Shown piece after piece: positions 6,025-30,738 of a stretch of DNA of 32,000 bases. Position 1 is the stretch's first letter, and each line of letters begins with the position of its first letter. Position numbers and translations under genes: made by a program. Source of the DNA: Thermofilum adornatum (GTDB taxonomy: Archaea; Thermoproteota; Thermoprotei; Thermofilales; Thermofilaceae); contig NC_022093.1 of the NCBI RefSeq assembly GCF_000446015.1, forward strand, positions 930,001 to 962,000, read 5' to 3'. The notes under the pieces were generated by a model. It had not been told where the DNA came from. It did not search any database and saw only the letters and a list, made by a program, of their open reading frames with translations.

Positions 6025-6282
6025 ATGCGTGAATACTTCAATAAACTCCTCTGGGACAAGACAGTAGACAAGAAACAGGTCAAAGTAAAATTCGTGTCTA
6101 GAGGAACATCTACGCAAACAGACATGTTTACTGGAGAACAAGTTGTCCGGGTCTCACGCGACGGAGTAATTATACTCACAGAAAGCGGTACAGAAAAATA
6201 TATTCCCTACCACAGGATACTCGAGATAACATACTCGGGAAAAACAGTATTTAACAAAAAAGAAGAAAAATATTTTGTTTAG
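6025..6282 (+). CDS. UPF0248/DUF504-family small protein
   Basis: MREYFNKLLWD...KYIPYHRILEI matches my recollection of the archaeal DUF504 pattern (N-terminal L/INKLKWD and C-terminal IPxHRI). The start is taken at the ATG at 6025 rather than the listed 5956. Confidence 0.55.
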   Translation: MREYFNKLLWDKTVDKKQVKVKFVSRGTSTQTDMFTGEQVVRVSRDGVIILTESGTEKYIPYHRILEITYSGKTVFNKKEEKYFV

Positions 6283-7316
6283 ATACCCTTCTCGGCCATG
6301 TAGAGCAAAAGATCCACGAGACGGTTGCTGAAGCCCCACTCGTTGTCGTACCAAGCTACGACTTTTACCTTGTTGCTCTTCCCACCAAGCACCATGCTTG
6401 CCTGCGCGTCATATATCGAGGAGTGCGGGTCCCCCACGATGTCCGAGGAGACTATCGGGTCATCCACGTATTCAAGTATTCCCTTCAAGTAGGTCTCAGA
6501 AGCCTCTTTAAAAGCCGCATCTAGCTCCTCCTTTGTAACCTCTCTGCCTAGCTGAGCAACCAGATCAACAACAGAGCCGTCAGCCACAGGTACACGCATA
6601 GCCATTCCGTCCAGCTTACCCTTCACCTCAGGAATCACTAGGTGCAATGCCCTAGCTGCTCCAGTCGTTGTAGGTATAATATTTAGTGCAGCTGCACGCG
6701 TCCTCCTAAAGTCTTCTGGATGTATTAAGTCTAGGATCCTCTGGTCATTGGTATAAGCGTGGACCGTGGTCATGAATCCCCATTCGAGACCAAAGTTTTT
6801 GAGGAGAACATATACAACTGGCGCTAGACAGTTAGTAGTGCATGATGCATTTGAGATGACTTGGTGTTTCGTTGGGTCGTACATGTGGTGGTTTACTCCC
6901 ATCACGATTGTGACGTCTGCGCCTTTCGAGGGGGCGGTTACGACAACCTTCTTGGCACCGGCTTTGAGGTGAAGAGCGGCCTTGTCTCTATCGGTGAATC
7001 TGCCAGTAGCCTCCATTGCTATGTCTACTCCTAGATCTTTCCAGGGTAACTTGTCGGGGCTAGCTTCATTCAGAATGAGCATCTCGTGTCCTTCTACTAT
7101 GAGCTTGTTGTCCTTGACTTCTACTTTGTACGGGAGACGTCCAAAGACAGAGTCGTATTTAAATAGGTAGGCCAGCATCTGGGGAGAGCCTAGGTCGTTA
7201 ATTGCTACAACCTCAAATTTGTCGAAGAATTTTTCGTTTTTCAGAGCTGCCCGTAAAAAGTTCCTGCCAATTCTTCCAAAACCATTTAGTCCAACCTTTA
7301 TGGTCATACTGGTCAC
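6279..7316 (-). CDS. gap: Glyceraldehyde-3-phosphate dehydrogenase, type I (bacterial/eukaryotic type)
   Basis: N-terminal Rossmann motif VGLNGFGRIGRNFLRA, catalytic site SNASCTTNCLAP and C-terminal WYDNEWGFSNR. The start may instead be the ATG at 7307 (MTIKVG...). Confidence 0.9.
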   Translation of the reverse strand: MTSMTIKVGLNGFGRIGRNFLRAALKNEKFFDKFEVVAINDLGSPQMLAYLFKYDSVFGRLPYKVEVKDNKLIVEGHEMLILNEASPDKLPWKDLGVDIAMEATGRFTDRDKAALHLKAGAKKVVVTAPSKGADVTIVMGVNHHMYDPTKHQVISNASCTTNCLAPVVYVLLKNFGLEWGFMTTVHAYTNDQRILDLIHPEDFRRTRAAALNIIPTTTGAARALHLVIPEVKGKLDGMAMRVPVADGSVVDLVAQLGREVTKEELDAAFKEASETYLKGILEYVDDPIVSSDIVGDPHSSIYDAQASMVLGGKSNKVKVVAWYDNEWGFSNRLVDLLLYMAEKGI

Positions 7317-7336: not shown

Positions 7337-7344
7337 CATATAAA
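7337..7344 (-). promoter_or_regulatory. TATA-like box (TTTATATG) upstream of gap
   Basis: The reverse strand reads GGAATTTATATGTATAGG, ending about 20 nt upstream of the ATG at 7316. This fits a short or absent leader. Confidence 0.35.
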
Positions 7345-7413
7345 TTCCGATTAAAAAAGCCCAATATTACAAAACCCTGTTAAATTGTTCTCTGGGAAGA
7401 AGTGAAGCTTCAC

Positions 7414-7468
7414 GTATCAGACCTGCACGAGCTCTTCACATATCTGTCCTTCCGAGCGTCATCATTAC
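7414..7468 (-). ncRNA. C/D box sRNA (dual guide)
   Basis: The reverse strand reads GUA-AUGAUGA-CGCUCGGAAGGA-CAGA-UAU-GUGAAGA-GCUCGUGCAGGU-CUGA-UAC. The parts are C box (7465-7459), 12-nt guide, D' variant, 3-nt spacer, C' variant, 12-nt guide, D box (7420-7417) and a 3-bp terminal stem GUA/UAC. This is the canonical archaeal 12-nt spacing. No ORF covers the region. Confidence 0.8.
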
Positions 7469-7490
7469 AAAAAACCTAGTCATGCCCACA

Positions 7491-7498
7491 AATATAAA
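7491..7498 (-). promoter_or_regulatory. TATA box (TTTATATT) for the C/D box sRNA
   Basis: The reverse strand reads GAAGTTTATATTTGTGGGCATGACTAGGTTTTTTGTA followed by the C box. The TATA ends 25 nt before the C box, which predicts a TSS just upstream of the terminal stem. Confidence 0.5.
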
Positions 7499-7568
7499 CT
7501 TCATGGTTCTAGCCACGTAATATTTAATTATCATTTATCACGAGCTTCTGCGAAACTCAGGGCTATAA

Positions 7569-7589
7569 AAGCCTTAATTCTTTAGGCTT
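7569..7589. terminator. Symmetric hairpin (AAGCCU-9 nt-AGGCUU) followed by a U-run, downstream of the tRNA
   Basis: There is a 6-bp inverted repeat at 7569-7574 and 7584-7589. On the minus strand it is followed by UUUUAU. A T-rich tract (AUUUUGUUG) also directly follows the tRNA CCA end. Confidence 0.25.
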
Positions 7590-7621
7590 AATTCCCGAAG
7601 ACTCCCCTATGCAACAAAATA

Positions 7622-7731
7622 TGGTGCCCCGGCCGGGATTTGAACCCGGGATCTTCGGCTCGAGAGGCCGATATCCTTGCGGCCTTGCATCTTCCAGCTC
7701 GTGCAGGTTGACCGGGCTAGACGACCGGGGC
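7622..7731 (-). tRNA. tRNA-Glu(CUC), 110 nt with encoded CCA, interrupted by a 31-nt non-canonical intron in the D-loop/D-stem junction
   Basis: Hand fold: acceptor GCCCCGG/CCGGGGC with discriminator A and CCA; T arm CCGGG-UUCAAAU-CCCGG; anticodon arm UCGGC-CUCUCGA-GCCGA (anticodon CUC at 7664-7662). The D stem GUCU pairs with GGAU only after 31 nt are removed. The exon sequence closely resembles crenarchaeal tRNA-Glu as I remember it (UAGCCCGGUCAA, CUNUCGAGCC). Confidence 0.85.
7677..7707 (-). other. tRNA intron (31 nt; the register is ambiguous by up to 3 nt because CAA is repeated at both junctions)
   Basis: The intron is CCUGCACGAGCUGGAAGAUGCAAGGCCGCAA. Removing it restores an 11-nt D loop AGCCCGGUCAA and the D stem. 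It has an internal hairpin CCUGCA/UGCA(A)GG. I could not fold a canonical bulge-helix-bulge by eye. Confidence 0.65.
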
Positions 7732-7827
7732 TTAGCGCGCGCTAACGGCTTTGATGGAAAGGTGCAAAATGTAAAATGAATCTAGATTTAAAAACTTTTC
7801 ATTGGGTGGAATAAAGGAAGGAAGACT

Positions 7828-9977: not shown

Positions 9978-11195
9978 TTATTCTTCTATGGTCTGAAAGT
10001 CAGGGCTATGTAGGCTACTGCCGAAATCAGGAAAAGTAACAGTATTATTATAGATGCTATCCTCTTCAGAGTCGCTTTTTTCATTCTTCTCACCAATCAT
10101 TAGCCAAGTCATGATTAGAAACATGCCTAAAAATATTAGTGTTTCTGGTCTGAGTAATGACCCCAACGGAACGTTCTGTAATGAGGGAAGTCCACCTATG
10201 CTAGGTAGTGTATTGTTCATTTGTTCAAGTTCTTCTCTAGCGCCAGCCCCCTTATACAAAATTTTTCCATCACTGATGACAACAACGGTTGGGAACACTG
10301 TTACGTTAAGTTTGTAGAAGAGATTTTCTTCATCACGTGCAACGATCCATGTAATGTTGTTTTCTTTCACATATCTCTCTAGAACAGCCTGGGTATCAAC
10401 TGGGGACACTGTTAGGGAAACAACTGTGACTCCAGGAAGCCTTGAAAGATTTCTAAGGGCAGGTACAAGATACTTGCAACCGGTACACTGAGTATAGAAA
10501 AATTCAATGACGAGTATCTTGTTTCTCTGCTGGAAATCGAGGTCTAGTTTTGACGAGTTTAACATGTTGATGGAGGGGAGCTTCCCCAAGGTTTTATCAA
10601 CGCTCATGTTCATCTTGACATTCTGGATCATCTTTTTCTCTAGGAAGCCTATGACGTCTGAAATAGAGGTCGCACGTGTTACTATTAGCTTGCATGTGAT
10701 TTTGACGTTGACGTTTGTAGTTCCATTTAGTGCGTTGACTATTGGGGGTGAAGCTGAGCACTCGTAGTTCTTTGGCGCGTTGACGAGTACCTGGTAGGCA
10801 TCAACAGGCAGGGACACATTTTCGCCTGGTTTTACGGTAAGGGTGTTGTTGGTGGTGATGGATGCCAAGGAAACATTGATTCCTACAGGTGTAAAGTTTA
10901 ATGTTTCAACAATTATGTTGACCTTTTCTGGCTCCAGCTTAAAGTACACCTCGGTTGTGTTTGTTTTTACCTCGAATGTGCTCTGCAATTGTTTATACTT
11001 GGGGGCACTTATGAGAATCGTGTAGTTGCCGAGTGGTAGGTTAACGGAGACCTTGCCATTCACATTTGTTAGTGTTGTAATGTTTTCTCTTCCAGTAATT
11101 GTTATCCTGGCCCCTGGCAAGGGTTGGTCATCTTGACTAAGCACGTTTATTTGGATATCTCGCCTCTCTTCCTTTTTACGGTCAAGTTTTAACAT
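9978..11195 (-). CDS. CarboxypepD_reg-like Ig-fold repeats + thioredoxin-like (TlpA-type, CxxC) domain + C-terminal TM anchor; possibly the 3' part of a frameshifted larger gene
   Basis: DIQINVLSQDDQPLPGARITITG...GNYTILISAPKYK fits the carboxypeptidase-regulatory-like fold pattern. The thioredoxin motif is LVIEFFYTQCTGCKYLVPAL. The TM helix is LIFLGMFLIMTWLMIG. I counted 15 N-x-S/T sequons by hand, and there is no signal peptide. Confidence 0.65.
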   Translation of the reverse strand: MLKLDRKKEERRDIQINVLSQDDQPLPGARITITGRENITTLTNVNGKVSVNLPLGNYTILISAPKYKQLQSTFEVKTNTTEVYFKLEPEKVNIIVETLNFTPVGINVSLASITTNNTLTVKPGENVSLPVDAYQVLVNAPKNYECSASPPIVNALNGTTNVNVKITCKLIVTRATSISDVIGFLEKKMIQNVKMNMSVDKTLGKLPSINMLNSSKLDLDFQQRNKILVIEFFYTQCTGCKYLVPALRNLSRLPGVTVVSLTVSPVDTQAVLERYVKENNITWIVARDEENLFYKLNVTVFPTVVVISDGKILYKGAGAREELEQMNNTLPSIGGLPSLQNVPLGSLLRPETLIFLGMFLIMTWLMIGEKNEKSDSEEDSIYNNTVTFPDFGSSLHSPDFQTIEE

Positions 11196-12568
11196 GATCT
11201 GGGTGTCGCTTGTGAAGCTCTGCGTAAGAGATTTAGGCGAAAAGCTTCCTTTTTAACATTGATGTTATATGTTCCCGGCGGCACTTCAAATATTATTGGA
11301 CCATTGTTGTTAGTAATAAGAGACTGGCTTGTCCCTCCTGATGAAATTATTTCTACTACGGCGCCGGGGACGGGCCGTCCCTGGTCATCTACAACAATCA
11401 ACCTTAGTTTTATCGTGGTTAGTTGTAGGGCAGAGACAAGCATATTGTCGCCATATATACTGTAAAATCCTCCTCGAGAAGCGACGGCTGTTTTAGGCGG
11501 ACTTGGTGCGATATCCCAGGAAACCTGGTAGTAAGCAGTCCTGGAAAGTCCGCCATTATAAGAATATATCTCTACTTCATCGATTTTAAAGATGGCAATA
11601 GAGGAGCCATCGCTTGCAACAGCTACTCTTCCCAGGGGGACAGAAACAAGGTTGTTGCATTCCAGATTTAAATTACACCTTCTCAGTGTTCCGTCCGAGA
11701 AAATTGCGAGGAATGTATCATTGGTAAAAGGAATAAAACTCTGGATCTTGTCCAACATTCTTTTTACCTTGATGTTTAGGTCTGGCAAATTAAATACATA
11801 GGTCAAATAGTTGCCAGTGGAATTCTGCTGAACGCGTTGAGCAACCAAAAAATTGCCAACGACACTCTTCAAGGTTAAACCACTCTGGAAAGACGCAACC
11901 TTCTTAACATTCTGACCATCAATTCTGTAAACTTCTATCTTGTTATCCGTCAGCTGACATAGTTCACACTTAGTATCAATAGTTTCGGCAATGAGATAAG
12001 AGCCCCAAAAATCAAGCGAAAAAACATCAACCAAGATATCATTGCTGGTATCCAAGTCTCGCTCAAATATCCTGCTCTTCGACTGGGTGTCGAAAACAAC
12101 AAGCCTTGTCTCGGGATAACGCTTACCACTTACAGTTACATAATACCTGGAACTAACAGCCAGGTATCTGCCATCACTACTTAGCGAAGCCATGAGAAAA
12201 GATTCTTCATCGTTTTTCCTTGCTAGAAAGGCATCTATTATGTTTAGTGTCGAGGAATTCAGCAAATAGATGTTTCCAGATCTGTCAACTCCGACTAAAA
12301 TACGGGAGGGAGGCACATATTTGATGTAAAAAATTTCCTTGTCTGGGTTGATGAGTCGATTTGCTAAGGTGTTTCCGCTACTGTCCATGAGGCTACACGT
12401 CCCATCGCCGAAGCATAGAACAGCCTTGTTGTCCGGAAGCGCCGCCATAGAAGTTATTCTCTTTGAGAAGGCTTTTTGAATGAAATTATAGCTGGGCTGA
12501 GCATACGCTGGGCTCAGCGTCAAAACTAACATAAGCAGAAATGCTACGAGGCCTACGACCTTCCGCAT
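11189..12568 (-). CDS. Secreted beta-propeller-like protein with a C-terminal CarboxypepD_reg-like domain
   Basis: Signal peptide MRKVVGLVAFLLMLVLTLSPAYAQ. Repeated blades resemble LSSDGRYLAVSS and VASDGSSIAIF. The C-terminal LRLIVVDDQGRPVPGAVVEIIS...PPGTYNINVKK is truncated in mid-domain by the stop. Confidence 0.6.
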   Translation of the reverse strand: MRKVVGLVAFLLMLVLTLSPAYAQPSYNFIQKAFSKRITSMAALPDNKAVLCFGDGTCSLMDSSGNTLANRLINPDKEIFYIKYVPPSRILVGVDRSGNIYLLNSSTLNIIDAFLARKNDEESFLMASLSSDGRYLAVSSRYYVTVSGKRYPETRLVVFDTQSKSRIFERDLDTSNDILVDVFSLDFWGSYLIAETIDTKCELCQLTDNKIEVYRIDGQNVKKVASFQSGLTLKSVVGNFLVAQRVQQNSTGNYLTYVFNLPDLNIKVKRMLDKIQSFIPFTNDTFLAIFSDGTLRRCNLNLECNNLVSVPLGRVAVASDGSSIAIFKIDEVEIYSYNGGLSRTAYYQVSWDIAPSPPKTAVASRGGFYSIYGDNMLVSALQLTTIKLRLIVVDDQGRPVPGAVVEIISSGGTSQSLITNNNGPIIFEVPPGTYNINVKKEAFRLNLLRRASQATPRSC

Positions 12569-21760: not shown

Positions 21761-22990
21761 ATGATTGAAGGATTAAACATCAAGACACTGGACGATGTGA
21801 ATGTTTCTAACAAAACTGTCGGCGTACGTGTAGACTTCAACTCGCCAATTGATCCAGCTACGAAAAAGATCCTTGACGACACAAGGATACGTGCACACGC
21901 GGAAACAACACTAAAGGAGCTAGTCGAGAAAAAAGCAAAAGTGGTGGTTATATCTCACCAGGGAAGAAAAGGTGACCCAGACTTTGCGAGCCTAAGCGAA
22001 CATGCCAGCATACTTGCCAAGTTCTTACCGGCAAAGGTAAAATTCGTAGACTCAATATTCGACGAGAAAGCAATAAACGAGATTAAGGGTCTAAAGCCAG
22101 GAGAAGTCCTCGTCCTCGAAAATGTAAGAATGTGGGACGGAGAAACGAAGAGCGCCTCTCCCGAGGATCATGCAAAAACACCGCTGGTACAGAGCCTGGC
22201 CCCACTATTTGACGTCTACGTTGTAGACGCTTTTTCAGCTGCACACAGGCCACACGCCTCCCTAGTCGGATTCGCGCCCGTCGTAAAACACTTCGTTGCC
22301 GGAAGGGTCATGGAAAGAGAACTGAGGGCACTCTACAAGGTAAGGAACAACCCTGAAAGACCATGCATATACGTTATAGGAGGCGCGAAGGCAGAAGACA
22401 CGGCAGAAATAATTTCAAATGTTCTCGGAAACAATATTGCCGACAAGATCCTGACAGGCGGACTAGCAGCAAACCTGTTGCTCCACGCGGCCGGCAAAAA
22501 CATTGGAGAACTAAACGTCAAGATACTAGAAGAGAAAGGCTTCTTAGAGCTGGAGCCCGAGCTACAGAAGCTTCTCAAACAGTACCCCGGAAGAATAGTA
22601 TTACCAATAGATCTCGCAGTCGAGTCCGACGGGAAGAGGGTTGACGTTCCAGTTGACAATGTTCCCAATCTACCAATAAAAGACATAGGAGTGAAGACAG
22701 CACAGGAATATTCTAAGATCATAAAGGAGTCTAGGACAGTCGTAATGAACGGGCCGATGGGAATCTTCGAGGATGAAAAGTTTAGCCTTGGAACAAAACT
22801 GGTTTTCGAGGCCATGGCGGCGTCAAAAGCCTTTACACTCATTGGTGGTGGTCACACAATTGCAAGTGCATCAAAGCTCGGATACTTGGACAAGATTTCA
22901 CACGTGAGTACTGGTGGCGGAGCCCTTATCGAGTACCTCATAAAGGGAACACTACCCGTGATCGAAGTCCTAAAGCAATACTCGAAATAA
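21761..22990 (+). CDS. pgk: Phosphoglycerate kinase (archaeal type)
   Basis: RVDFNSPI, VISHQGRKG, DAFSAAHR and STGGGALIEYL are PGK motifs. Confidence 0.92.
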   Translation: MIEGLNIKTLDDVNVSNKTVGVRVDFNSPIDPATKKILDDTRIRAHAETTLKELVEKKAKVVVISHQGRKGDPDFASLSEHASILAKFLPAKVKFVDSIFDEKAINEIKGLKPGEVLVLENVRMWDGETKSASPEDHAKTPLVQSLAPLFDVYVVDAFSAAHRPHASLVGFAPVVKHFVAGRVMERELRALYKVRNNPERPCIYVIGGAKAEDTAEIISNVLGNNIADKILTGGLAANLLLHAAGKNIGELNVKILEEKGFLELEPELQKLLKQYPGRIVLPIDLAVESDGKRVDVPVDNVPNLPIKDIGVKTAQEYSKIIKESRTVVMNGPMGIFEDEKFSLGTKLVFEAMAASKAFTLIGGGHTIASASKLGYLDKISHVSTGGGALIEYLIKGTLPVIEVLKQYSK

Positions 22991-23039
22991 ATGCACAAAC
23001 CTTAAAATCAACCTTTTTTCTATTATTTTTCGAGAAATC

Positions 23040-23801
23040 ATGAATAGACAGGAATGGGTCTTCTCCACAAAAGAGCCGATACCAAAAGGCTCCATTTTCA
23101 TTGTCGGGCTTCCAGACGTTGGTCTCGTAGGTCCAATATCTACGTCCCACCTCGTCAAGCAGTGGGACTTACACGAAATAGGCTACCTAGACTCCGAAAT
23201 GATTGCGCCCGTCATACTATACCACGAAGAAAAACCACTATTGCCAGTCAGGCTTTACGGCGGTTACAAGAAAAACGACTACATTGTGGTTCTACACTCA
23301 GACATAGCTATACCACCCGAGGCTATAAGTAGCCTGGCAACCACGCTAATCGACACGGCGAAAACAAACATGGCAAGCAAAGTAATCTTGCTTGGAGGAA
23401 TCGCCGTTCCAAACAGGCTAAACATAGACACCCCGAAAACCTACGCCGCAACAATAGACTCAGAGTCTCTTAGCGCCGCAAAGAATGCAGGCATAGAGGC
23501 CCTAAAAGAGGGCTTCATCGCCGGCATATACGCCCAGCTCCTAAAAGAGGGCCTAAAGAAAAACTACAGCGTAATAGCCCTGCTTGCTGAGTGCTTCCTA
23601 AACTACCCAGACCCAGGAGCATCTGCCTCGGCCCTACAAGCCCTATCAAAGCTTACTGGTCACGACGTGGACGTAAAAGCTCTTCTCGAACAAGAGGAAG
23701 AAATAAGGGTAAAAATGCGCGAAATGATGAAAAGAACAATGGAGACAATGCAGAAAGCCGGAAAAGAATACGAGTACACCATTCCAGCTCTCTATGTGTA
23801 G
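23040..23801 (+). CDS. PAC2-family proteasome assembly chaperone (PbaB-like)
   Basis: FIVGLPDVGLVGPISTSHLV is a typical PAC2 N-terminus. There is a coiled C-terminal segment, and the protein ends in L-Y-V, an HbYX-type proteasome-docking motif. Confidence 0.75.
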   Translation: MNRQEWVFSTKEPIPKGSIFIVGLPDVGLVGPISTSHLVKQWDLHEIGYLDSEMIAPVILYHEEKPLLPVRLYGGYKKNDYIVVLHSDIAIPPEAISSLATTLIDTAKTNMASKVILLGGIAVPNRLNIDTPKTYAATIDSESLSAAKNAGIEALKEGFIAGIYAQLLKEGLKKNYSVIALLAECFLNYPDPGASASALQALSKLTGHDVDVKALLEQEEEIRVKMREMMKRTMETMQKAGKEYEYTIPALYV

Positions 23802-23812
23802 GGGTGACCTAA

Positions 23813-24244
23813 ATGGAGGAATGGATCAGGAACGAAATCGAACAATTCTTTAAAGAAATAAGAAAAATGCGCGAAGAAATGGCAAAACTGGAACAAGAGT
23901 TCTTCAAGCCTACCCCCATAGAAGAAAAGCTCCAAGTCCCACTCTACGAGGTCAAGAGGTACTCAGACAAGCTAGTGGTCTGTGCTGACCTCGCAGGGGT
24001 TAAACGCAAGGAAGACATAAACGTCACAGTGGAAGGCGGCACGCTCAAAATAGAGGCAATACTACACAGACCAATAAGCTTCGAAGGCTTTACACTACTA
24101 CGTGAACCAATAACAAAATACAGGCTGGAAGTACCCATACCAGACAATGCAGACACAGACAACATAAAAGCATCCTTCAAGAAAGGCATCCTAGAAGTAG
24201 AAATACCGCTCAAAATACGCCGAGTAAAGGTCAACGTAGAATAA
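23813..24244 (+). CDS. Small heat-shock protein (Hsp20/alpha-crystallin family)
   Basis: The alpha-crystallin domain includes VVCADLAGVKRKEDINVTVEGGTLKIEA and ASFKKGILEVEIP. A GGGGTGA Shine-Dalgarno sequence lies upstream. Confidence 0.85.
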   Translation: MEEWIRNEIEQFFKEIRKMREEMAKLEQEFFKPTPIEEKLQVPLYEVKRYSDKLVVCADLAGVKRKEDINVTVEGGTLKIEAILHRPISFEGFTLLREPITKYRLEVPIPDNADTDNIKASFKKGILEVEIPLKIRRVKVNVE

Positions 24245-24246
24245 GT

Positions 24247-24993
24247 CTATTTAATGTTCCTCAGCTTCTCGATTAGGGCGTCTATACCTTCGATCCTTGA
24301 GACGGCTAAAGGTATATTTTCTCTCTTAGCTATCTCTAGCCCCAGCTCGTCAACCTTCTTGACACCATGAAGAACAACTAAGGCAGGTCTGAGTCCTCCC
24401 ATACCCGCCTGCATCGACTTGACTGCCACAAGCGGGCTCCGGCCATAAGCCACCCTTGTGAAAATAGCGGCTCTCTGAGTGGTTGCCCCGTAAAGCTTGA
24501 TGTAGTCATAGCTAGGCACGTCTAACACAAGCTTTACACTGTCTACCACGGTGTATCCAAGCAAAGGTGTCGCAGAGAATGCATGGCCAACGATTAGATC
24601 AGCTTCTATGGCTTCGCAAAACCTTGCGATAGAGATGGGGATGCTGAATTCTCTCATGTCGAGAACAGCTTCGCGCAGAAGATCTGAGCCGAGAAGTATA
24701 CGTCTAAGGCCACTTAGGACTATTCCTCCTCTTTCCATGTCTTTGAGTACTAGGCTTTTAACAAATTTTCTAATGAACCTAGCTCCGGGAGACTTTCTCC
24801 TCCCTGACTCATAGTCACTGATTACAGAGGCGGAGACCCCCATGATCTGTGCTAGCTCAACTTGGGTAAGGTTGAATTTTTCCCTCCATTTTTTCATCTC
24901 GGCGCCGGGATTATCAGACATTATGATTTCTCCGGCTATTTTTGAAAATATTTCTCTGATAGCTGGATCAGACATCAAATTTTCTTCAGCCAT
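24247..24993 (-). CDS. XRE-type HTH transcriptional regulator with an archaeal C-terminal domain (COG1395-like)
   Basis: Contains the HTH NLTQVELAQIMGVSASVISDYESGRR. I prefer the ATG at 24993 over the listed GTG at 25002. A TATA-like TTTATATAGC lies upstream. Confidence 0.7.
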   Translation of the reverse strand: MAEENLMSDPAIREIFSKIAGEIIMSDNPGAEMKKWREKFNLTQVELAQIMGVSASVISDYESGRRKSPGARFIRKFVKSLVLKDMERGGIVLSGLRRILLGSDLLREAVLDMREFSIPISIARFCEAIEADLIVGHAFSATPLLGYTVVDSVKLVLDVPSYDYIKLYGATTQRAAIFTRVAYGRSPLVAVKSMQAGMGGLRPALVVLHGVKKVDELGLEIAKRENIPLAVSRIEGIDALIEKLRNIK

Positions 24994-25058
24994 TTTTATC
25001 ACGTAAATATTTTCGTCAATTGCTATATAAATTTTTCACAGGCGTCGAAATATGGAGT

Positions 25059-28431: not shown

Positions 28432-28833
28432 TTATACGTGATACTTGGTTGTGTCTTCTGGCTTTGTCTGGGGTGGTTGGGGAACAGGTATTGATGGCGG
28501 GATGCCTAGTTCTCTTAGGAGCAACATGGTTTCGAAGAAGATATTTGAGGTAAGCATCTGTAGGAGCTGTGGGTCTGTTTTACCGGTTTTAAGTTTTTCA
28601 TGGAGATCCTGTAGCTCTCTTGGAGGAGCAGATATAGAAACCTTGCCTTTAAGCGAGACTGTGAAGAATGCGGGCAGGCTTGATACATTTGCAAGAAACT
28701 CTGCTACTAATTCATCGCCACTTATACTCGTTGAGACGGGGAAGGTAACCTGGATATTAACGTTTAGCTGTGCCTCAGCTTGCTCTGAAAGTTTTTCTGC
28801 ATGGATATATGTATAGGTAAGCGAGATCTTCAC
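28432..28833 (-). CDS. Hypothetical protein, possibly SecB-like fold
   Basis: A 133-aa ORF with a GTG start. The order of predicted strands and the helix region NIFFETMLLLRELGIPPSIPVP recall SecB (NILFPYARE...G.P...LP). This rests on pattern memory alone. Confidence 0.35.
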   Translation of the reverse strand: MKISLTYTYIHAEKLSEQAEAQLNVNIQVTFPVSTSISGDELVAEFLANVSSLPAFFTVSLKGKVSISAPPRELQDLHEKLKTGKTDPQLLQMLTSNIFFETMLLLRELGIPPSIPVPQPPQTKPEDTTKYHV

Positions 28834-28866
28834 AACAATTTTAATATGTTGAGAGATTAAAATATT
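28834..28866. promoter_or_regulatory. Compact divergent promoter with mirrored TATA-like boxes
   Basis: The 33-bp spacer reads AACAATTTTAATATGTTGAGAGATTAAAATATT. TTTTAAT and ATTAAAA are inverted copies about 10 bp apart. Each lies about 20-30 nt from the GTG start on the opposite side, which implies leaderless transcripts. Confidence 0.35.
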
Positions 28867-30738
28867 GTGGCAAAAAATATTATTGAAGGTACGCCGGGCG
28901 AAGTAAAGCTTCTAATGGGTAACGAAGCCATTGCCCGTGGCGCCTTGGAGGCTGGCGTGTCGATAGCTACTGCTTATCCGGGGACACCGTCAACAGAGAT
29001 CATTGAAACATTGGCAGAAGTGGGGAACAAATACGGCGTATACGTTGAGTGGAGCACAAACGAAAAAGTTGCACTCGAAATGGCTATTGGAGCCTCTATG
29101 ATGGGCCTCAGAGCACTGACGGCAATGAAGCACGTAGGCGTGAACGTAGCTTCAGACCCCTTGATGAGCCTAGGGTACACAGGTGTCGTCGGTGGGCTAG
29201 TAATCGTAACCGCTGATGACCCAAATGCACATTCAAGCCAAAACGAGCAGGACAATAGGATTTATGGGATCCACTCTTATATACCAGTCTTTGAGCCATA
29301 TTCGCCGCAAGAAGCAAAGGACATGACAAAAGACCTCTTCGACTTGTCTGAGAAATATGCCATCGCCGTATTCCTGAGGTCAACTACTAGGCTTTCCCAT
29401 AGCAGGGGAGAAGTAAAGCTGGGCGAGGTTCAAAATCTTGGAAGGAAACCAGTTTTCCATAGGGATCCTGAGAGGTGGGCCCTACTTCCTCCCTATAACT
29501 TGGCTAAGCACCGGGAGATCCTAGGCAAGCTTGAGAGACTAGAAGCAGACCTTGCTGGCTTCAAGTATAACTGGGTAGAAGAAGGGTCAAGCGACTTCGC
29601 AGTGATCGCTAGCGGTGTTAGCTATGCATACGTAAAGGAAGCAGTTGAGAAACTAGGAGTCAAACCGACTATCTTTAAACTGTCGAGCACTTTTCCTGTG
29701 CCTAGAAAGTTTGCCTTAGAGGCTTTGAAATATGGGAAGGTTCTTGTTGTAGAAGAGCTAGAACCTATAGTTGAAAACCAGCTCAAGGTCATCGCTTATG
29801 AAGAGGGGCTAAAAACACAGATATTTGGAAAGAACCTGATACCGCGCGTTGGCGAGCTTAACACTTCTATTGTTGCCTCCGCAATAAGCAAGCTGGCAGG
29901 TATATCTTATTCTCCACCAAATGCTCCAAAGGTTAATTTAGAGCTCCCCTCCAGGCCCCCAGTTCTATGTGCGGGCTGTGGACACAGGTCAACCTATTAC
30001 GCGGTAAAGCTGGCTGCTATGCGGGCACGCGTAAAACCTGTCTATGCAAACGATATTGGATGCTACACGCTGGGCTTCTATCCGCCCTTCAACATGGCAG
30101 ACTTCACTTGGAGCATGGGATCTGCTATAGGTATAGGCATGGGAATAGCAAAGTTCAGCGAGGAGCCTGTGATAGCATTCATAGGAGACTCTACTTTTTA
30201 CCATGCTGGTATTCCCGGCCTGATAAATGCAGTCTACAACGGTATACCTCTTCTAGTAATAGTTATGGACAACGGCATCACGGCTATGACTGGGCATCAG
30301 CCCCATCCTGGCTCTGGCTATGGCCCAACTGGCGAGACAAGGCCAGTAATAAGAATCGAGGACATTGCTAAAGCAGTAGGCGTAGAATTTGTAGAAGTAG
30401 TGGATGCATACGACGTAGAAGCCGTGAGAAGCACTACTGAGAAAGCCTTGAAATTTATAAAGGAGAAAAAGAAGCCTGCAGTAATTGTTTCCCGTAGACC
30501 GTGTGCATTAATGGAGCTCAGGAGAAAGAGGGTTCAAAACGAGGAAATAGTTCCCTACTACATAGACCAAGAAAAATGTATAAAGTGTGGAATATGTGTG
30601 GACAAGTTCTCTTGTCCAGCCATTGTTCGAGAAGGAGACAGGATCGTTATTATCCCTGAACTATGTGTGGGATGCGGGGTGTGCGCACAAATCTGTCCAG
30701 CAAAGGCGATAAAGCCCGTAAAGGGTATTAAAGGGTGA
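28867..30738 (+). CDS. iorA: Indolepyruvate:ferredoxin oxidoreductase alpha subunit
   Basis: N-terminal LMGNEAIARGALEAGV...AYPGTPSTEI, a TPP-binding region GDSTFYHAG...DNGITAMTGHQ, and two C-terminal ferredoxin motifs, CIKCGICVDKFSCP and CVGCGVCAQICP. Confidence 0.9.
   Translation: MAKNIIEGTPGEVKLLMGNEAIARGALEAGVSIATAYPGTPSTEIIETLAEVGNKYGVYVEWSTNEKVALEMAIGASMMGLRALTAMKHVGVNVASDPLMSLGYTGVVGGLVIVTADDPNAHSSQNEQDNRIYGIHSYIPVFEPYSPQEAKDMTKDLFDLSEKYAIAVFLRSTTRLSHSRGEVKLGEVQNLGRKPVFHRDPERWALLPPYNLAKHREILGKLERLEADLAGFKYNWVEEGSSDFAVIASGVSYAYVKEAVEKLGVKPTIFKLSSTFPVPRKFALEALKYGKVLVVEELEPIVENQLKVIAYEEGLKTQIFGKNLIPRVGELNTSIVASAISKLAGISYSPPNAPKVNLELPSRPPVLCAGCGHRSTYYAVKLAAMRARVKPVYANDIGCYTLGFYPPFNMADFTWSMGSAIGIGMGIAKFSEEPVIAFIGDSTFYHAGIPGLINAVYNGIPLLVIVMDNGITAMTGHQPHPGSGYGPTGETRPVIRIEDIAKAVGVEFVEVVDAYDVEAVRSTTEKALKFIKEKKKPAVIVSRRPCALMELRRKRVQNEEIVPYYIDQEKCIKCGICVDKFSCPAIVREGDRIVIIPELCVGCGVCAQICPAKAIKPVKGIKG

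Follow-up and report, generated by a model that had tools for sequence, protein, structure and literature searches.

The minus strand of a 32,000-nt stretch of the Thermofilum adornatum genome (NC_022093.1, positions 930,001–962,000; assembly GCF_000446015.1; hereafter the window) carries, at 7468..7414, a genuine archaeal box C/D small RNA (sRNA) with two guides, located between gap and a tRNA-Glu(CUC) gene. Box C/D sRNAs are abundant in thermophilic archaea, and one more would be a matter of routine annotation; the weight of this one lies in the assignment of its targets. The guide preceding box D′ was predicted to place a 2′-O-methylation on wobble U34 of tRNA-Glu(UUC), and the guide preceding box D was the exact complement of the start of an intron in the D-loop of tRNA-Glu. 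We propose that U34 would be methylated while the D guide is docked on this intron, and give this reading a probability of roughly 0.7. The preliminary description of the locus had identified the sRNA; the D-loop intron, the complementarity of the D guide to it and the match of the D′ guide to the tRNA-Glu anticodon loop had gone unremarked. The features concerned, numbered from the first letter of the window, are the following.

7731..7622, minus strand: tRNA-Glu(CUC) gene, 110 nt, interrupted by an intron and with encoded CCA
7708..7678, minus strand: bulge-helix-bulge (BHB) intron, 31 nt, at D-loop position 20b/21, with central helix CGGU/GCCG and 3-nt bulges CAA and CAA
7697..7708, minus strand: ACCUGCACGAGC, where the D guide is predicted to pair, with intron G5 (7704) at N+5 in a C:G pair
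7657..7668, minus strand: near-target of the D′ guide in the anticodon stem-loop of the CUC isoacceptor, GCCUCUCGAGCC
7498..7491, minus strand: TATA-like box TTTATATT, putative promoter, its end 25 nt from the C box
7414..7468, minus strand: box C/D sRNA, 55 nt including a 3-bp terminal stem (GUA...UAC), read from the sequence
7468..7466, minus strand: 5′ half of the terminal stem, GTA
7465..7459, minus strand: C box ATGATGA (AUGAUGA), UGAUGA invariant in the homologue alignment A1
7458..7447, minus strand: D′ guide CGCTCGGAAGGA (RNA CGCUCGGAAGGA), 12 nt
7446..7443, minus strand: D′ box CAGA, a variant of CUGA, GA invariant in alignment A1
7442..7440, minus strand: loop TAT (UAU), 3 nt
7439..7433, minus strand: C′ box GTGAAGA (GUGAAGA), a variant of RUGAUGA, UGA.G conserved in alignment A1
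7432..7421, minus strand: D guide GCTCGTGCAGGT (RNA GCUCGUGCAGGU), 12 nt
7420..7417, minus strand: D box CTGA (CUGA), invariant in alignment A1
7416..7414, minus strand: 3′ half of the terminal stem, TAC (UAC)
7413..7402, minus strand: palindrome GTGAAGCTTCAC (RNA GUGAAGCUUCAC), 12 nt, probably no functional part

The D guide (GCUCGUGCAGGU) was the exact reverse complement of ACCUGCACGAGC, nt 1–12 of the intron (7708..7697, minus strand). This was the only other perfect match to the D guide in the window, where 0.05 matches with at most one mismatch are expected. The duplex of the window guide with its own intron had an energy of −24.6 kcal/mol over 12 bp, and none of 2000 guide shuffles was as good. 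The same held for the guide and intron of T. pendens (−21.6 kcal/mol, 11 bp, 0/2000), while for the relative L106 (L-numbers denote loci or contigs of relatives; T. pendens is L085) the duplex reached −17.2 kcal/mol over 10 bp including one G:U pair, with 20 of 2000 shuffles as good. In the species of L106 the UUC gene L157 has the same intron, so that one precursor carries both targets, 14 nt apart. Within the splicing motif, the h′ strand and nucleotide 3 of bulge 1 fell under the D guide, as did the first nucleotide of the central helix in 15-nt introns.

The tRNA-Glu(CUC) intron formed a relaxed bulge-helix-bulge (HBh′) plus an inner helix with all pairs canonical, and cloverleaf plus BHB had a folding energy of −37.7 kcal/mol. 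Because of the intron at 20b/21, the gene was missed by standard tools: ARAGORN found no tRNA in the window, and the Rfam tRNA model matched the 3′ part of tRNA-Glu only, with 27.3 bits, below its gathering score. In-silico splicing with a cut after the second bulge nucleotide, a rule taken from PMC4307357, yielded a 79-nt tRNA-Glu(ctc) that ARAGORN recognised; splicing the genes of T. pendens, L106 and L165 in this way gave the very same sequence. The introns at 20b/21 measured 17 nt in T. pendens, 15 nt in L106 and 18 nt in L165; T. pendens and L165 had a second intron of approximately 29 nt between the variable region and the T-arm. Matching H/bulge geometry was present in the tRNA-Glu genes of seven relatives, and a metagenome scan for TAGCCCGGTCAACYTGC gave 71 matches, comprising 64 chance matches and 7 real tRNA-Glu genes. 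Outside Thermofilaceae, the 20b/21 tRNA-Glu intron occurs in both isoacceptors of S. tokodaii, with verified cleavage (PMC4307357), and in M. kandleri (position from PMC4307357 and PMC5829648). We take it to be an old intron that has been retained.

Two side observations concern the tRNA-Glu genes. In the metagenome Ga0080004, the CUC gene L106 and the UUC gene L157 shared an identical upstream flank of at least 80 nt, 5′ half and intron, and diverged only from the anticodon stem onward and downstream, a pattern that points to a recent duplication of promoter and 5′ half, or to gene conversion there. In the 5′ leader of the window gene, a perfect 12-nt palindrome (UAGCGCGCGCUA, 7733–7744 minus) ended one base short of tRNA position 1; it is among 7 palindromes of this length that occur at chance level, and is notable for its position beside the RNase P site.

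The D′ core, GCUCG(A/G)AAGG, was invariant in all homologues, including Sac-sR114 of S. acidocaldarius, and its complement, CCUU(U/C)CGAGC, corresponds to nt 31–40 of tRNA-Glu. The tRNA-Glu(UUC) genes of relatives (L157, L116 and L110) read GGCCUUUCGAGCC and form 10 contiguous base pairs with the core. In these genes the fifth guide nucleotide upstream of D′, an A, lies opposite U34 (N+5) in a Watson–Crick pair. The sole variable core position, A or G, faces U35 and is neutral since it lies opposite a U. No complement of the D′ guide was found in seven archaeal 16S/23S sequences. The tRNA-Gly(UCC) had also been considered as a perfect D′ target (CCUUCCGAGC); it was rejected, as tRNA-Gly has A37. 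For several archaeal tRNAs, methylation of position 34 by an sRNA guide is established; for several Pyrobaculum sRNAs such methylation of a single tRNA has been reported (PMC6009581), and Um34 derivatives occur in tRNAs of thermophilic archaea.

The window sRNA is a homologue of Sac-sR114, which was listed in an RNA-seq catalogue of S. acidocaldarius with 24,853 reads and rRNA targets given as NP/NP (Dennis et al. 2015, PMC4644070, Additional file 1). Its sequence reads GAGC-AUGAAGA-GGCUCGAAAGGU-CUGA-AAUU-AUGAUGA-UCCCGCGCAGGU-CGGA. Both RNAs have the order C, tRNA guide, D′, C′, second guide, D, with 12-nt spacers, an identical D′ core (GCUCGAAAGG) and related D guides (UCCCGCGCAGGU and GCUCGUGCAGGU). 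The window thus fits a Sac-sR114-type family with GCUCGGAAGG (A to G opposite U35) plus CUCGUGCAGG, the second guide being of the type CCCG(N)GCAGG. Unlike the window sRNA, Sac-sR114 has degenerate outer boxes (AUGAAGA, CGGA), and its D guide carries U1, C3 and C6 where the window has G1, U3 and U6; positions 3 and 6 match A versus G variants of the intron. In the accessible part of the catalogue Sac-sR114 stands without a target, rRNA alone being covered, and no link to tRNA-Glu or to an intron is stated. What is added here is the target assignment, tRNA-Glu U34 plus the D-loop intron, of which no description for this sRNA was found in the searched literature; literature and sequence-string searches with guide or target strings returned unrelated primers only. 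A further RNA of the same catalogue file, Iho-sR306 of I. hospitalis, closely resembles Sac-sR114 in its D guide (GCCCGCGCAGGG), and its D′ guide (GGCUUUCAAGGC) would put U34 of a tRNA with UGA anticodon (Ser) at N+5. The intron-type guide may thus be combined with different wobble guides.

The D guides of the family fell into two types in a pairing matrix. Type I guides (window, T. pendens/L106, L001, Sac-sR114 and Iho-sR306) paired with tRNA-Glu introns, at their 5′ ends, over 8–12 contiguous positions and with 16S helix 17 (h17) over at most 6. At two positions the presence of U or C in these guides tracked A or G in the intron (nt 7 and nt 10), and 11 positions of the Sac-sR114 D guide paired with the ACCUGCGUGGG intron of L110, from a Thermofilum-like lineage of metagenome-assembled genomes (MAGs). 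Type II guides (L087, L088/89, L090/91, L169 and L170) paired with 16S h17 of Pyrobaculum and Thermoproteus (UUUUGCCCGG(U)) over 9–10 positions and with introns over at most 6, and their A/G variation sits opposite U's of h17. By this comparison type I is phylogenetically wider than type II, and one Thermofilaceae subclade appears to have re-aimed its D guide at 16S h17. The intron-matching guide had initially been taken as a recent Thermofilum innovation from a 16S guide; this was reversed, as L001, Sac-sR114 and Iho-sR306 show type I to be widespread. An intron start complementary to the D guides of Sac-sR114 and Iho-sR306 is predicted to read ACCUGCGCGGG.

In the mechanism that we propose, the sRNA, assumed to assemble with L7Ae, Nop5 and fibrillarin, would hold unspliced pre-tRNA-Glu at two sites, one per guide. 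The D′ guide would lie on nt 31–40 of tRNA-Glu(UUC) and direct 2′-O-methylation of wobble U34, with the D guide on the first 10–12 nt of the 20b/21 intron, including that of the CUC gene 153 nt upstream of the sRNA. Docking on the intron would raise the affinity and specificity of a short anticodon-loop duplex at approximately 85 °C. With the D guide lying over the inner helix of the splicing motif and over the third nucleotide of its bulge, modification would be forced ahead of splicing. Such an order has been seen in M. kandleri: modifications are in place before the introns come out, the D-loop intron is the last to go, and its cleavage in vitro is inefficient. By the N+5 rule intron G5 would be methylated as well and then lost with the intron. 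The CUC isoacceptor could be bound by the complex and should not be methylated at C34. The anatomy of the sRNA, its conservation, the complementarities and the structure of the intron are shown directly by the sequences; we infer from them expression of the sRNA in Thermofilum, its protein binding, the methylation and the docking role. Whether the 20b/21 intron (Thermofilaceae, Sulfolobus and Methanopyrus) has been retained as the docking site of the orphan guide of the Sac-sR114 family for U34 methylation, with one subclade re-aimed to 16S h17, we regard as an even question.

Several observations weigh against docking coupled to U34 methylation. The adjacent tRNA-Glu is the CUC isoacceptor, with an A:C mismatch at the methylation site, and the D′ pairing rests on the UUC genes of relatives; with the adjacent tRNA the D′ guide forms 3 bp, the mismatch at C34 and 6 bp (−13.6 kcal/mol), and a mismatch at N+5 prevents methylation according to studies reviewed in PMC6009581. 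The D guides of five lineages had no match to known introns, which would make the pairing dispensable or the introns different. The two 5′-most guide positions of L106 were conserved yet unpaired with its own intron, hinting at another constraint. For Sac-sR114 and Iho-sR306, pairing with the L110-type intron sets guide and intron of different organisms against each other. Methylation of an intron nucleotide, finally, has no obvious use.

The likeliest alternative is that the RNA is a genuine U34-methylating C/D sRNA whose D guide has its functional target in rRNA, a pre-rRNA spacer, 5S or another non-coding RNA, the intron match being incidental or an ancestral relic. We consider this rather unlikely. 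The target would be the complement of the D guides ACUCGUGCAGGU / GCUCGUGCAGGU, an rRNA or pre-rRNA site of the form ACCUGCACGAG(U/C). Pairing of five lineages' D guides with Pyrobaculum/Thermoproteus 16S h17 speaks for it, as do the conserved 5′ end of the L106 guide and the approximately 80% of tRNA-targeting Pyrobaculum sRNAs that have an orphan second guide. A match of 12/12 to a tRNA-Glu precursor has, however, a chance of about 6e-6 per guide, guides of the window type pair over at most 6 positions with h17, and the related D guides of Sac-sR114 and Iho-sR306 are without a predicted rRNA target. Neither CCUGCACG nor UGCACGAG occurred in the 16S/23S sequences of seven archaea other than Thermofilum, and the helix 71 region of crenarchaeal 23S rRNA reads GGCGUGCAUGAA. 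A better D-guide target may exist in Thermofilum's own 16S, 23S or 5S rRNA or pre-rRNA spacers, a point against the docking proposal. A pattern scan of viral contigs and an open reading frame (ORF) search with a chimeric Pyrobaculum/Thermoproteus 16S-frame translation yielded no 16S sequence. As a candidate D-guide target, 23S helix 71 was rejected for crenarchaea: E. coli has ACCUGCACGAAUGG (alignment in PMC4644070), and crenarchaeal 23S has GGCGUGCAUGAAUGG.

An alternative that we hold improbable is that the sRNA binds the intron chiefly to regulate or chaperone splicing, with wobble methylation secondary. The footprint on the third nucleotide of bulge 1 and on the h′ strand would suit such a role, as would the late removal and inefficient in vitro cleavage of the M. 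kandleri D-loop intron, and where conserved guides are mismatched at N+5, binding by itself is considered to be their mode of action. The D′ guide is, however, the most conserved part of the sRNA and its N+5 pair with U34 is Watson–Crick, which argues for methylation as the primary function; lineages without an intron-matching D guide still keep the D′ guide.

The box architecture on which the docking proposal builds was confirmed base by base. The minus-strand reading in the preliminary description, GUA-AUGAUGA-12 nt-CAGA-UAU-GUGAAGA-12 nt-CUGA-UAC, matched at every position of 7468..7414; both guide spacers were exactly 12 nt (7458..7447 and 7432..7421), and the TATA box lay 25 nt ahead of the C box (7498..7491), as had been described. 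The order was C-D′-C′-D, with one mismatch each in D′ and C′. No ORF of at least 40 aa lay over the sRNA on either strand; the spacer between gap and the tRNA measured 314 nt from the gap ATG (7307) to the tRNA 3′ end (7622). Scanned with a loose regular expression for C/D RNAs that tolerated one mismatch in D′ and C′ and spacers of 10–13 nt, the 64 kb of both strands gave a match at the sRNA site alone; 300 first-order Markov simulations of the window, in which dinucleotide transition frequencies were kept, gave none. The covariance models of Rfam, proposed earlier as a check, gave a divided answer. At relaxed thresholds the families sR5, sR23, snoPyro_CD, sR1, sR2 and sR17 aligned end to end (7414..7469 minus), with sR5 as the best (25.5 bits; E = 7e-4 locally and 0.04 window-wide), and no C/D family reached its gathering threshold at the locus (40 for sR5), since the guides differ. 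The likeness is generic, concerning boxes and spacing, and the sRNA is not a member of any of these six families.

The minimum free energy fold of the sRNA was not above shuffles (z = +1.27), a weakness that is expected because the guides must stay single-stranded. Through its flanks, a U-run (GUUUUUUGUA) upstream and UACGUGAAGC downstream (7405–7478 minus), the terminal stem GUA/UAC can be extended to 9 bp (−5.2 kcal/mol, equalled by none of 500 shuffles), which may be relevant to processing or circularisation. The suggestion that the palindrome at 7413..7402 forms a 3′ end or processing hairpin was not upheld: perfect 12-nt palindromes were at chance frequency in the window (7 observed, 7.8 expected), and this one was absent from T. 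pendens and L106. Part of it can pair with the upstream U-run, lengthening the terminal stem. As a separate observation, a segment at 7520–7552 minus (CGCAGAAGCUCGUGAUAAAUGAUAAUUAAAU) has AGCUCGUG in common with the C′-box/D-guide junction of the sRNA and includes a C-box-like AUGAUAA; it varies in L112, a near-identical strain, and the likeness may stem from a partial copy of the sRNA that has since decayed, or from chance.

Homologues were recovered with gap and the neighbouring metallophosphoesterase gene as anchors, plus one metagenome scan, from T. pendens, L106/L166/L167, L112, L087, L088/89, L090/91, L169, L170 and L001. The window locus itself was found identical in two NCBI MAGs and in Logan contigs. 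Conservation in relatives, which had been named as a check, was borne out in ten Thermofilaceae lineages, where boxes and spacing were kept beside gap at gap identities from 93% to 64%. UGAUGA and CUGA were invariant across the Thermofilaceae homologues, and the loop and the D′ and C′ boxes varied. The C-to-D length was 49 nt and the spacers were 12/12 throughout, except in L087 (51 nt and 12/14). The flanks were complementary yet divergent in sequence (GUA/UAC, ACG/CGU, CGCA/UGCG, GGGCCG/CGGCCC, GCGGGC/GCCCGC), so that stems covary; such pairing with different sequences was present in L088, L090, L169, L170, L106 and L001 and weak in T. pendens and L087. Together with the abundant homologue Sac-sR114, this upholds the earlier reading as a dual-guide C/D sRNA. 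The reading that short motifs merely fell together by chance in an AT-rich spacer and form no RNA gene, for which the shortness of the boxes, the absence of an Rfam match at gathering score and the unstable fold might be cited, is effectively refuted by this conservation and by the boxes in an expressed Sulfolobus RNA, and is further opposed by the 300 empty simulations and by the poor folding expected of guide RNAs.

The sRNA is persistently linked to gap, and only Thermofilum sensu stricto has it beside tRNA-Glu. The gene order metallophosphoesterase, tRNA-Glu(CUC), sRNA, gap was shared by the window, T. pendens and L106. In L087–L091, L169 and L170 the sRNA–gap pair comes after PGK-PAC2-HSP20-HTH, and in L001 gap is closely followed by the sRNA on the opposite strand. 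A rearrangement put sRNA–gap beside tRNA-Glu in Thermofilum sensu stricto; in the window the PGK-PAC2-HSP20-HTH_3 block is located at 21761–25002, approximately 14 kb from gap. Next to the metallophosphoesterase gene of L163 and L164 the adjoining tRNA was not tRNA-Glu, and L165 gave the further intron variant described above. A GAPDH-based synteny search in GTDB genomes had a best match of 64% identity; the C/D regular expression found no sRNA in 80 GTDB gap loci, and a looser search later gave one, L001.

The sRNA is probably transcribed from its own TATA promoter. This part of the preliminary description is plausible by position: a TATA-like box was also present 30–39 nt 5′ of the C box in most homologues, and an oligo-T run directly 3′ of the tRNA (7621..7612) makes separate transcription of the sRNA plausible. 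With a hairpin and U-run at 7595..7565 and a TATA box of its own for gap at 7344..7337, tRNA-Glu, sRNA and gap are likely three separate transcription units.

The sRNA and its predicted targets were compared with known systems. Pyrobaculum sR51 is likewise a C/D sRNA predicted to methylate tRNA-Glu, listed among position-34 guides and printed as C24Glu (Lui et al. 2018, PMC6009581). In Pca sR51 (PMC4644070), by our own reading, the D guide ..GCUCGAGAGG.. complements nt 31–40 of the CUC isoacceptor, with C34 at N+5; the tRNA guide is thus at D rather than D′, and the other guide is unrelated. The scan in the sR51 paper used mature tRNAs only, and intron targets were therefore invisible to it.

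In Haloferax and Pyrococcus the intron of pre-tRNA-Trp contains a C/D RNA (Clouet d'Orval 2001; Singh 2004; summarised in PMC7994747 and PMC11408192), which resembles the proposed system in methylation of position 34, in two guides for one precursor and in action in trans. There the intron, at 37/38, is the guide, whereas in the window the guide is a separate gene and the intron, at 20b/21, is the target. The 31-nt window intron contained no C/D boxes, and the sRNA has a gene of its own, 153 nt beyond the 3′ end of the tRNA, instead of being encoded in the intron. H/ACA sRNAs proposed for pseudouridine-35 in pre-tRNA-Tyr of Sulfolobales and A. pernix would also act as trans guide RNPs on an unspliced pre-tRNA (PMC2651775); RNP class and chemistry differ, and the intron is canonical. 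An S. acidocaldarius sRNA predicted for U34 and G18 of tRNA-Gln likewise directs two guides to one tRNA, in the anticodon loop and the D-loop region, with both targets exonic (cited in PMC7668247). Dicistronic tRNA–C/D units (Tripp et al. 2017, PMC7994747) have the sRNA gene just 3′ of the tRNA on the same strand, with no functional link between tRNA and sRNA described for them. In the window, unlike these units, 153 nt separate the two genes, an oligo-T run follows the tRNA and a TATA box precedes the sRNA; the spacer in L106 is approximately 55 nt, also with a TATA box.

Three further observations concern other genes of the window. The gap product (6279–7307 minus), a GAPDH of type I, shares 93% identity with its T. 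pendens counterpart. It is of the bacterial/eukaryal type (Gp_dh_N, Gp_dh_C) and approximately 60% identical to proteins of many bacterial phyla beyond Thermofilaceae, which suggests that Thermofilaceae and other archaea acquired it horizontally long ago. Where the window has two overlapping ORFs of 405 and 459 aa (9978–12568 minus; CarboxypepD_reg and thioredoxin-like domains), L081 has a single gene of 863 aa. The two sequences are 99.96% identical and differ by one 1-nt indel, a frameshift due either to decay into a pseudogene or to faulty assembly. At 28743–28916 plus, Rfam weakly matched the FdoG-1 5′ UTR thermometer (23.5 bits versus 50, E = 0.05), probably by chance.

Approximately 28% of Pyrobaculum guides are orphan, as are most second guides of tRNA-targeting sRNAs, and the screens were run on mature, intron-less tRNAs (PMC6009581). 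In the window, a guide of this orphan type is perfectly complementary to an intron in the precursor of a tRNA-Glu, a member of the family to whose anticodon loop the other guide is directed. For genome annotation, a tRNA-Glu gene invisible to ARAGORN and default Rfam is a point to consider with Thermofilaceae MAGs. If the proposed reading is true, some guides would be orphan simply because target searches omitted introns, and the tRNA-Glu precursor would be the first conserved archaeal C/D guide target outside mature rRNA and tRNA. It would represent intron-dependent, RNA-guided tRNA modification in which a guide pairs with the intron, and a way to order modification before splicing without compartments. 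S. acidocaldarius, a genetically tractable species with the homologue sR114, offers a direct test of the idea. The proposed reading would also give a function to a puzzling, deeply conserved non-canonical intron.

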